From positions 1-54,393 of the IMG/VR virus record IMGVR_UViG_3300015050_000873: 54,393 nucleotides of DNA, one strand, 5' to 3'. The stretch comes from a virus. Lineage: Duplodnaviria > Caudoviricetes. The translations under genes were made by a program, and so were the position numbers. The notes beneath the pieces were generated by a model. That model made no database searches. It was not told where the DNA came from and was given only the letters and a program-made list of their open reading frames with translations. This document shows positions 28,496 to 29,043 of this stretch, piece after piece. The first letter of the stretch is position 1; every line of letters starts with the position of its first letter.

Positions 28496-28794
28496 ACCGC
28501 CGCGGCTTCCTGTCCGGCATCCTCGCCACCGGCATGGCCCCAGCCGTAGTGGGCTCAAGCATCCTGATGCCGCTGGGTAAGGTGTGGGTGCCGGACCTGA
28601 GTATGAACGCGACCGAATTGTGGTGGATGCAGCACGATCCGATGTGGCAGTTCGACCGAATTGTGGTGGATGCAGCACGATCCGATGTGGCAGTTCGACC
28701 GATTTCTGTGGGCCAGCACCGATTCGCGGGTTTCATGGTCGAAGGTAAAACAACCCTAGTCATTTTATGTAATGACAAAGCATTACAAAAATAA
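28492..28794 (+). CDS. Twin-arginine-like (MNRRGFL) small protein, frameshifted by a 43-bp duplication
   Basis: ATGA overlap; NRRGFLSGILA. Confidence 0.6.
   Translation: MNRRGFLSGILATGMAPAVVGSSILMPLGKVWVPDLSMNATELWWMQHDPMWQFDRIVVDAARSDVAVRPISVGQHRFAGFMVEGKTTLVILCNDKALQK
28610..28702 (+). repeat. Perfect 43-bp tandem duplication
   Basis: Units start at 28610 and 28653, 7-bp remnant at 28696. Confidence 0.95.
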
Positions 28795-28797
28795 TTG

Positions 28798-28841
28798 TTG
28801 ACAGGAAATCGCTGATGAGTTGAAATTCGCTTCGGGATACT
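28798..28841 (+). promoter_or_regulatory. Putative late promoter (pR'-like): TTGACA-N17-TGAAAT with downstream -10-like GATACT; inverted repeat TGTAATG-N6-CATTACA at 28768-28787
   Basis: Perfect -35, weak -10, position after Q-like gene and before terminators. Confidence 0.6.
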
Positions 28842-28858
28842 GTCCCCCAAAATTCCTG

Positions 28859-28889
28859 AAAGGCCTGCGCTAACCCCGCAGGCCTTTTT
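28859..28889 (+). terminator. tR'-like intrinsic terminator 1
   Basis: AAAGGCCTGCG-ctaaccc-CGCAGGCCTTTTT. Confidence 0.85.
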
Positions 28890-28928
28890 CGTTTGTCTCC
28901 CGGCCTGTCCTCTAGCAGGCTGTTCACA

Positions 28929-28965
28929 CCCGCCCAGTGGCAACGCTGCGGCGGGTTTTTCTTTT
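28929..28965 (+). terminator. Intrinsic terminator 2 directly before the tRNA
   Basis: CCCGCC-CAGTG-gcaa-CGCTG-C-GGCGGG-TTTTTCTTTT. Confidence 0.8.
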
Positions 28966-28966
28966 C

Positions 28967-29043
28967 CGCAGATTGGCGCAGCCTGGCAGCGCGCTTGCCC
29001 CCTAAGCAAGAGGTCGTTGGTTCGAATCCAGCATCTGCAACCA
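28967..29043 (+). tRNA. Initiator-type (fMet scaffold) tRNA with anticodon CCU (reads AGG)
   Basis: CGCAGAT TG GCGC AGCCTGGCA GCGC G CTTGC CC-CCT-AA GCAAG AGGTC GTTGG TTCGAAT CCAGC ATCTGCA A CCA; 77 nt; C1:A72 mismatch, G2:C71, C3:G70, A73, encoded CCA; anticodon at 29001-29003. Confidence 0.93.

Follow-up and report, generated by a model that had tools for sequence, protein, structure and literature searches.

Why would a phage keep a tRNA gene directly behind two strong terminators, a single base past the second of them, and what would have to happen for that tRNA to be made? Here we analysed the locus in IMG/VR virus record IMGVR_UViG_3300015050_000873, a complete virus record of 54,393 bp and approximately 61% GC that is referred to below as the window. 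A preliminary description had taken the tRNA, whose anticodon is CCU, for the first product of a late transcript of the lambda pR'/tR' kind, held back at two terminators until a Q-type antiterminator acts and required by genes that start with AGG. We consider it likely that the locus is a Q-type late cassette and hold this part of the reading with good confidence; that the whole chain applies, including dependence of the tRNA on antitermination, appears somewhat probable. The elements are listed in Table 1, and the loci used for comparison carry L numbers.

The promoter and terminators ahead of the tRNA

The cassette is located exactly at the junction of the early and late genes. On the + strand, it runs from the end of an open reading frame (ORF) through an AT-rich stretch with a palindrome, an A-tract, a -35 and a -10 hexamer, a hairpin, the motif CCAAAATTCC, a first terminator (T1), a GC-rich hairpin, a second terminator (T2) and a single C to the tRNA. 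The TTGACA, the GATACT, the two terminators, the tRNA and the palindrome of the preliminary description all lie where it had placed them, and the second terminator does end 1 nt before the tRNA, with its T-run reaching 28965 and the tRNA beginning at 28967.

Both T1 and T2 consist of a GC-rich hairpin followed directly by a U-tract, as expected of intrinsic terminators. In T1, 11 perfect pairs precede TTTTTCGTTTGT (-19.9 kcal/mol, z -4.9; 0 of 200 shuffled sequences fold as well), and T2 has a 12-pair stem with one bulge that is followed by TTTTTCTTTT (-22.5 kcal/mol, z -4.5; 1 of 200 shuffles folds as well). An energy-based scan returned them as the two strongest terminator-like sites on the + strand of the whole 54 kb.

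A TTGACA hexamer is unremarkable alone, with 20 copies in the window against 22 expected. The preliminary description named no -10 to go with it; the likely one is TGAAAT at 28821. In a weight-matrix scan, whose values are approximate, TTGACA-N17-TGAAAT ranked first of 271,790 candidate sites on the + strand of the window with 12.9 bits, and transcription from it would start at about 28834. The A-tract AAAAATAA upstream may, by its position, be an UP element. GATACT was rejected as the promoter -10 because of its 32-nt spacer from the -35.

No sigma-70 promoter was found from T1 to the start of the tRNA. The highest-scoring candidate in this interval (-10 ending in 28889-28966) reached 4.95 bits, compared with 12.9 for the late promoter, and lacks the key -10 bases; the best one between the tRNA and the first late ORF scored 3.6 bits. 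With no promoter of its own, the tRNA would therefore depend for its synthesis on read-through of T1 and T2.

Whether that read-through is regulated is a separate matter. Tandem terminators are never fully tight and tRNA is stable, so the tRNA could accumulate in a lysogen, and this counts against a strict requirement for an antiterminator. On this alternative, the tRNA is constitutive or semi-constitutive, made through leaky read-through of T1 and T2 or from an unrecognised promoter, and the terminators merely attenuate its synthesis; lysogens would already contain the stable tRNA. The promoter is the strongest-looking of the window, and read-through of approximately 1% could build up a stable RNA. 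There is also a precedent for a separate promoter in the Stx2 phage 933W, whose record (NC_000924) carries a putative tRNA promoter, pT, between terminators and tRNA genes. However, the stem of T2 and the tRNA of the window are only 10 nt apart, the candidate in this region is the weak one given above, and both terminators are strong, as judged by their folding energies and long U-tracts. We consider constitutive synthesis unlikely.

The Q-like gene and its cassette in related phages

The candidate antiterminator is the product of gene 27975-28355, a protein about equal in size to Q21. Its AlphaFold (AF2) model, built from 27 sequences (predicted local distance difference test score, pLDDT, of 77), consists of four helices, the N-terminal one and three others, and of a loop (residues 23-42) that was modelled poorly. 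When the model was compared with all PDB representatives by VIA-align, the leading matches were sigma region 4 domains (3hug_A, Z 7.2) and, over model residues 2-124, the Q21 chain 6jnx_P (Z 6.3). A second structural comparison placed Q21 first, and Q21 chains are the best matches over the full length (6p18_Q, Z 7.9, 100 residues aligned, root-mean-square deviation (rmsd) 6.4). Another Q21 structure, 6p1c, matched with Z 6.5 over 94 residues at an rmsd of 3.1, and the sigma region 4 domains with Z 5-7.2. Q21 is described in the published structural work as having helices H3-H6 that resemble sigma region 4, an H1 that binds like the anti-sigma factor RseA, and a long loop between the last two helices that reads the DNA minor groove (PMC6606751; 10.1101/651190). 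The sequence VWRSxRLPxD, invariant in the family of the window protein, maps in our model to the loop that joins the last two helices. A protein atlas feature search returned a PF06530 cluster, 'putative Q protein', at rank 27 with a score of 0.93. On our reading, the protein probably has a Q21-like fold, with a sigma-region-4-like helix-turn-loop-helix and an N-terminal helix, and would work like Q.

By sequence, the protein could not be shown to belong to PF06530. Its close homologues in a word-based search numbered 13, and 352 representative clusters matched the family at E<=0.001 in a profile search. This putative antiterminator family, approximately 350 clusters at 50% identity that are mostly viral, is without a Pfam or PHROG model and seems to carry the Q21 fold into new phages. 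None of 27 aligned members matched any PHROG family. The Q-lambda family PF03589 matched neither the window protein at E<=1 nor any of the 27 aligned members, and a profile search of PDB sequences gave nothing meaningful (best E 0.2). Among the relatives, the best PF06530 score was that of a distant member, L021, with 19.6 bits, below the cut-off of 26. As a control, the Q protein of 933W scored 170.6 bits on PF06530 and matched Q21 PDB chains at E 1.7e-7; hhalign of the window family against 933W Q alone gave a probability of 2.9%. Unlike Q21 and Q933W, the window protein is thus undetectable in PF06530, PF03589 and other Pfam or PHROG families.

A scan of viral contigs gave 26 loci with homologues at 30-41% identity, and collapsing homologues that are >=95% identical left 17 loci, with L006/L008 and L011/L015 still close pairs. 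A perfect TTGACA follows the homologue stop within <=150 nt in 11 of the 17 loci, where the background is 0.046 per 150 nt. A terminator, taken as a hairpin of <= -10 kcal/mol with at least 6 T of 9, was found <=220 nt of the -35 in 8 of these 11 TTGACA leaders, compared with 48 of 419 background windows. Looser terminator criteria were set aside (35% of background windows matched), and so was a strict perfect-stem rule, under which 0 of the 11 leaders qualified, along with 3 of the 419 background windows. Terminase or terminase-associated HNH genes are among the next ORFs in 12 of 15 loci; L007, L019 and L021 do not have them next, and the flank of L021 is short. This synteny matches the Q cassette as defined in one account, a Q gene followed by PR', a pause element (a candidate in the present loci), a terminator and the late genes (10.1101/651190), and the lambdoid Q21/Q933W (PF06530) cassette has the same order of regulator gene, strong sigma-70 promoter, early -10-like element, intrinsic terminator and late genes.

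T2 appears to be the tR' of this family. Its sequence (28928-28970) matches the cassette terminator of L014 at 37 of 42 positions, a score reached by 0 of 500 shuffles, although the Q-like proteins of the window and L014 are only 36% identical. The tail of T1, TTTCGTTTGTCTCC, is present again in L031, where two terminator-like hairpins occur and the tail follows the first.

The Q-type reading of the preliminary description is supported indirectly by the Q21-like fold match and by the synteny with the cassette, but for the -10-like pause element CAAAAT is a better candidate than the GATACT it named. GATACT (approximately +3 to +8) supplies loop and flanking bases of the leader hairpin GGGAUACUGUCCC and is not conserved; an ATA core at its position is common to four leaders (the window, L004, L014 and L005) and is not family-wide. 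A hairpin of other sequence is present at the same place in six related leader types (L001, L003, L004, L005, L011 and L014). When the leaders are anchored at the -35, each has a -10-like hexamer of variable quality 17 nt downstream, and most continue with a short GC hairpin and a CC(A/G)(A/G)AAT motif. The regular expression C[CTA]RRAA is matched at 48-53 nt from the -35 start in 8 of the 11 related TTGACA leaders, with an offset of 49 in the window; L006, L008 and L019 are without the motif, and in L017, L020 and L021 it lies within the terminator loop. CAGAAT, which is CAAAAT in the window, agrees with TATAAT at positions 2, 4, 5 and 6. The motif keeps a fixed distance from the promoter regardless of RNA structure, and a DNA-level element is therefore suggested. 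CAAAAT (approximately +15 to +20) is our candidate for a sigma-dependent pause or qut element, and the conserved leader motif of the family a possible site of pausing or loading.

Closer relatives were found in metagenomes. A search of the 'phages' collection gave no close relative of 27900-29400, with tRNA-level matches only, and genome contig scans with the Q-family alignment and with a 24-nt stretch of the tRNA returned no relative. Two weak partial matches from a metagenome contig scan, L027 and L028, were not used. Contigs of four metagenome DNA runs (X1-X4) supplied the closer relatives; no RNA run among the public ones was listed with this sequence. Over the Q-like gene (27937-28357), alignments were obtained for X1 record 1 and X3 record 16, which have 218 or 515 other letters in place of 28357-28847. 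T1 aligned in X1 record 1 only. The stretch 28893-29233 aligned in X1 and in X2 record 12 with 17 differing letters and in X3 with 30. Of the 40 differences listed, none is within the tRNA and three are in the U-tract of T2, with 54 more differences beyond those listed; the X4 contig, 163 nt long, has two differences, both outside the tRNA. T1, T2, the tRNA and the downstream region are approximately 90-95% identical in these contigs. From these alignments, the block from T1 to the tRNA is kept in the metagenome relatives and 28357-28847, including the promoter, varies. In X1 record 1, approximately 76 extra letters, the length of a tRNA, separate the T1 region from the alignment that begins at 28893 (approximately 28894).

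A number of these results weigh against a Q-type cassette. The window protein has no Pfam match at E<=1 and no PHROG match, and 0 of 65 family representatives match PF06530 at E<=0.01. Aligned by hhalign with 20 PF06530 members, the family reached 8.7% probability, over a short N-terminal LLxxWxxW motif. Foldseek returned nothing from the PDB at E<=0.001, and the Z values of 6-8 are modest and within the range common for helical proteins. A strict consensus scan called no promoter within 27000-31000, and the late -10 carries a G at position 2. The leader holds two -10-like pause candidates, GATACT and CAAAAT. Inspection of the aligned leaders gave no repeat common to the family that could be a Q-binding element; the window leader has GAAATCGCT and GAAATTCGCT 18 nt apart, which are not shared by relatives. 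The window thus differs from the lambdoid cassette in that no Q-binding direct repeat was identified in its leader, in that its pause candidate is further downstream, and in that 443 nt with two small ORFs lie between the Q-like gene and the promoter. Among the relatives, 6 of the 17 loci have no TTGACA directly downstream of the homologue: in L005 TTGACG stands at this place, a terminator but no TTGACA is present in L002 and L026, and in L007, L018 and L024 other ORFs come first. No terminator was detected in 3 of the 11 TTGACA leaders (L004, L006 and L008). Finally, the upstream gene of L031, the closest structural relative (capsid protein 79% identical, no tRNA), differs from that of the window.

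These points bear on a second alternative, in which the product of gene 27975-28355 is a sigma-region-4-like DNA-binding regulator, an activator or a repressor, of the adjacent promoter, and read-through is the work of an N-like factor made by the early operon or of a put-like leader RNA acting in cis, for example the conserved small hairpin. Sigma region 4 domains score like Q21 in the structural comparisons (Z 7.2 versus 7.9), the protein is without sequence membership in any Q family, and the hairpin at the leader start is conserved in structure and not in sequence. Conversely, a perfect -35 followed by a terminator suggests a constitutive terminated promoter and not an activator-dependent one, no Rfam leader family matches, and Q21 aligns over the full protein, N-terminal helix included (model residues 2-124). 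The position of the gene before the packaging genes is also that of Q in the account cited above (10.1101/651190). We regard a regulator of this type as quite unlikely and an antiterminator as the better description of the protein.

Another small Q-like antiterminator, AlpA of Pseudomonas aeruginosa, is described as binding a promoter element and bypassing a downstream intrinsic terminator (PMC9371919). Our model matches it weakly (7xya_G of structure 7XYA, Z 4.9), less well than Q21, and AlpA differs from the system proposed here in regulating a bacterial cell-death pathway; gating of a tRNA by AlpA is not known.

The tRNA and the AGG codons at the portal and capsid starts

The genes starting with AGG that the preliminary description relied on seem to exist: portal and major capsid have AGG where relatives have ATG. 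Translated from AGG 33476, the portal protein aligns with phrog_332 over residues 3-537, at profile positions 9-547 of 560, and its phrog_449 match begins at profile position 7. The first canonical start, ATG 33638, is 54 codons downstream of this AGG, and from there the phrog_332 match begins only at profile position 67. The capsid protein aligns with phrog_3437 over residues 3-277, at profile positions 8-293 of 294. ATG, GTG and TTG are unavailable at the start positions of both genes (33476-33478 and 36629-36631).

A scan for capsid homologues gave 39 loci, of which L065-L068, whose matches do not start at residue 1, were left out. The codon aligned to the capsid AGG is ATG in 35 of 35 loci, each behind a Shine-Dalgarno-like sequence. 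An N-terminal portal match was present in 27 of the 39 loci, and in at least 23 of these 27 an ATG, or in L049 a GTG, is no more than two codons away from the aligned position. No CCU tRNA was found among the 39 capsid homologue loci, 20 of which have the full 9 kb upstream flank. The CCU anticodon is complementary to the AGG at both starts, and the canonical CAU anticodon is absent. Two ATG-to-AGG changes alongside a CCU tRNA support the existence of AGG-start genes, and it appears unlikely that two independent changes of this kind, in the two key head genes, arose by chance in the one phage with a CCU tRNA that has an initiator-type acceptor end. For translation of the two genes to begin, the tRNA is probably required, given the AGG at their start positions and the C1·A72 mismatch described below.

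A small Gly/Ala/Pro-rich ORF (33271-33472) ends with TAA 33470-33472, 3 nt before the portal AGG, and relatives have a similar upstream stop beside the portal ATG. Translational coupling from this ORF could contribute to portal initiation.

A C1·A72 mismatch with A73 is the hallmark of bacterial initiator tRNA, and the window tRNA has both, together with an encoded CCA end; the Rfam alignment flags its 1-72 pair as non-standard. Bacterial initiator tRNAs also end their anticodon stem, next to the loop, with a run of three G:C pairs. In the anticodon stem of the window tRNA, CUUGC/GCAAG, only two loop-adjacent pairs are G:C or C:G, so that this initiator feature is missing, and pair 11-24 is C:G, which is not initiator-like. 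Position 33 is C instead of U, unusual for any tRNA. Nor is the molecule a standard tRNA-Arg (CCU) elongator, given the mismatched 1-72 and C33. Its body is most like prophage tRNA-Arg(UCU), and the best E. coli match, a prophage tRNA-Arg, is 79.7% identical over positions 7-65. The D-loop is without A at the position read as 20.

Initiation with altered anticodons is known from engineered systems, in which initiator tRNAs derived from tRNA-fMet start at matching non-AUG codons that follow a Shine-Dalgarno site, as described in a report at 10.1101/2021.05.25.445580. The window tRNA differs from these in being natural, in its tRNA-Arg-like body and in being without the three anticodon-stem G:C pairs. 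A literature search for natural phage initiator tRNAs with an altered anticodon returned engineered systems only.

The tRNA looks like an insertion directly after the family tR', because the homology of T2 with L014 extends into the first three bases of the tRNA and then stops, and because ARAGORN called no tRNA at any of the 26 Q-family loci. A degenerate tRNA pattern, scanned against viral contigs, gave 0 matches. A possible origin as an attP remnant was rejected, since the tRNA has its full length and the integrase gene is 24 kb away. Two tRNA-like elements of relatives are recorded here for completeness. In L001, an element at 1691-1749 (Rfam tRNA, 42.5 bits) that ARAGORN did not call has its anticodon arm replaced by 4 nt, and sits between the conserved leader motif and the terminator of the Q-family cassette. 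In L031, ARAGORN reported a 94-nt 'tRNA-???' with a two-base anticodon at 7916-8009, approximately 1 kb upstream of the capsid gene, which is probably spurious.

Could the tRNA be a passenger, with T1 and T2 merely ending the early-right operon and a short leader RNA? An insertion-like boundary at T2 and the missing ARAGORN tRNA at this place in the 16 distinct related Q-family loci, L001 with its tRNA-like element aside, would fit such an incidental arrangement, but we consider it highly improbable, since AGG at the portal and capsid starts (ATG at the capsid position of 35 of 35 relatives) ties the tRNA functionally to the late genes, the block from T1 to the tRNA is conserved in three metagenome relatives, and the tRNA is transcribable only through T1 and T2, whatever its origin. 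Supplementation of codons within late genes is likewise considered unlikely: the late genes (29215-52195) contain hardly any AGG codons, with 0-3 per gene and one in a gene of 2,483 codons, and the early genes have 1-4 AGG codons each.

The arrangement has its closest counterpart in 933W. The annotation of NC_000924 gives the order Q, pR', qut, two possible rho-independent terminators, pT, ileZ, argN, argO, a terminator and stxA2. As in the window, tRNA genes that include Arg tRNAs come first after pR' and two rho-independent terminators, and the prophage tRNA-Arg that best matches the window tRNA in E. coli is located in the equivalent region. A promoter with terminators gated by Q is the classic lambdoid design, and with tRNA genes behind pR' already annotated in 933W, this part of the locus is ordinary when taken alone. 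The window differs in the distance and in the tRNA. Approximately 390 nt and the annotated pT separate pR' from the tRNAs in 933W, whereas the window tRNA follows the T2 U-tract after 1 nt and no promoter was found for it. The tRNA-Arg of an E. coli O121 prophage and argO of 933W have a standard 1-72 pair and U33, in contrast to C1·A72 and C33 here. A tRNA one base past a U-tract and without its own promoter offers a natural system for measuring antitermination by means of a stable RNA.

Taken together with the AGG starts, antitermination may gate a private start codon: an initiator-type CCU tRNA would be made only upon read-through by the Q-like protein, and the AGG portal and capsid genes would be translated afterwards. 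We put this forward tentatively, as a possibility that falls a little short of probable. The sigma-70 promoter, with the A-tract upstream, would fire constitutively. In the prophage state, its transcripts would end at T1 (approximately 60 nt) or T2 (approximately 130 nt), just before the tRNA, and lysogens would be expected to be free of it. After induction, the early-right operon would supply the Q-like protein, which would load onto RNA polymerase at the promoter-proximal pause, for which CAAAAT is the candidate, and make it resistant to terminators. The read-through transcript would then contain the CCU tRNA first, followed by the terminase, portal and capsid genes. RNase P would cut at the junction of the T2 U-tract and the tRNA, and the 3' end would be processed. 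From the tRNA gene it is 4.5 kb to the portal start and 7.7 kb to the capsid start, and the tRNA could mature, and presumably be charged for its role as an initiator, as the polymerase travels these distances. The effects could be a delay or threshold, plus a second lock that keeps stray transcripts from being translated into head proteins. The preliminary description had called this a feed-forward delay or AND gate, which is formally correct in that mRNA and tRNA would both be needed; as logic it is weak, with both coming from one transcript and a single input.

Phage suppressor tRNAs, in phages with stop-codon recoding, license the translation of late or structural genes, with stop codons reassigned in elongation. 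The window appears to differ by using a sense codon, AGG, as a start and by placing the tRNA behind Q-type terminators. If the proposal is correct, antitermination controls access to a private start codon, and a sense codon reassigned as a start is wired to the switch between lysis and lysogeny; literature searches returned no mechanism of this kind from nature. The second lock would then act on head assembly, possibly with initiation that is independent of the host initiator tRNA.

Genome setting and smaller features of the locus

The gene order around the cassette (Table 1) is that of a temperate phage with a lambdoid-like layout, as far as gene content indicates.

Table 1 Features of the cassette and of its surroundings in the window.
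Feature	Position	Strand	Remarks
Lysis cassette	900-2163		reached across the record ends
Integrase	4185-5216	-	
Two repressor-like genes	15247-16217	-	
RecT-like gene		-	in the leftward gene set
Rightward early operon	from ~19 kb	+	methyltransferase, O-like replication protein, helicase, resolvase, NinB, HNH nuclease
Candidate Q-type (Q21-like) antiterminator gene	27975-28355	+	126 aa; ATG 27975 after AGGAG
ORF with twin-arginine-like signal	28493-28794	+	between Q-like gene and promoter
Palindrome TGTAATG-N6-CATTACA	28768-28787		perfect 7-bp inverted repeat
A-tract AAAAATAA	28787-28794	+	ends 3 nt upstream of -35
-35 TTGACA	28798-28803	+	late promoter
-10 TGAAAT	28821-28826	+	17-nt spacer; most likely -10 of late promoter
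Small leader hairpin GGGAUACUGUCCC	28834-28846	+	-4.5 kcal/mol; contains GATACT 28836-28841
Conserved motif CCAAAATTCC	28847-28856	+	includes CAAAAT 28848-28853
T1 intrinsic terminator	28858-28896	+	stem 28858-28888, T-run to ~28896
GC-rich hairpin between T1 and T2	28901-28922	+	no U-tract; -12.7 kcal/mol, z -4.1
T2 intrinsic terminator, family-type tR'	28928-28965	+	stem 28928-28956, tract TTTTTCTTTT ending 28965
tRNA, anticodon CCU	28967-29043	+	ARAGORN tRNA-Arg(CCT); Rfam tRNA model 55.5 bits
CA-rich element GCACACACGCACAC	29064-29077	+	after tRNA; also L002 3498-3511, just past terminator
Late side		+	cassette, then terminase small subunit (29706), terminase large subunit, portal, major capsid, podovirus-type tail genes
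First late ORF	29306-29709	+	signal-peptide and lipobox-like N-terminus
Terminase small subunit	29706-30410	+	phrog_1206, E 1e-52
Portal gene	33476-35095	+	homology-defined N-terminus at AGG 33476, after GGGAT
Major capsid gene	36629-37474	+	AAGGAG-N6-AGG at start position

The palindrome just upstream of the -35 had been proposed as a binding site for another regulator. The palindrome has no other match in the window even when 3 mismatches are allowed, it is not a feature of the family, and no regulator can be assigned to it. It was also rejected as a terminator, as it is without a T-run after it on either strand. L004 has a different palindrome, followed by the same octamer AAAAATAA, 3 nt and TTGACA, so that the A-tract of L004 is at the same distance from the promoter as that of the window.

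The ORF at 28493-28794 contains a perfect 43-nt tandem duplication (28610-28695). As 43 is not a multiple of 3, the duplication shifts the frame: without it, the ORF would stop at TAG 28757-28759, and with it the stop is TAA 28792-28794 and the ORF crosses the palindrome. The duplication could be a recent mutation or an assembly artefact.

Past the tRNA, the element GCACACACGCACAC is identical in the window and L002 at 14 of 14 positions, a score that 0 of 500 shuffles reach, although its low complexity makes this weak evidence. It could belong to a conserved site upstream of the packaging genes, possibly one related to cos or pac. The first late ORF, which follows, matched no family in Pfam or PHROG.

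Further from the cassette, the late operon ends with a single ORF of 2,483 aa (44744-52195; phrog_9880, function unknown), upstream of which are T7-like tail tubular genes and a gene for an internal virion protein. The early-right operon includes an ORF of 139 aa (26130-26549) with a Pfam Acb2/Tad1 hairpin domain (E 1.1e-9, 38.7 bits, cut-off 27). Judging by this domain, its product is a possible sponge for cyclic-nucleotide defence signals.

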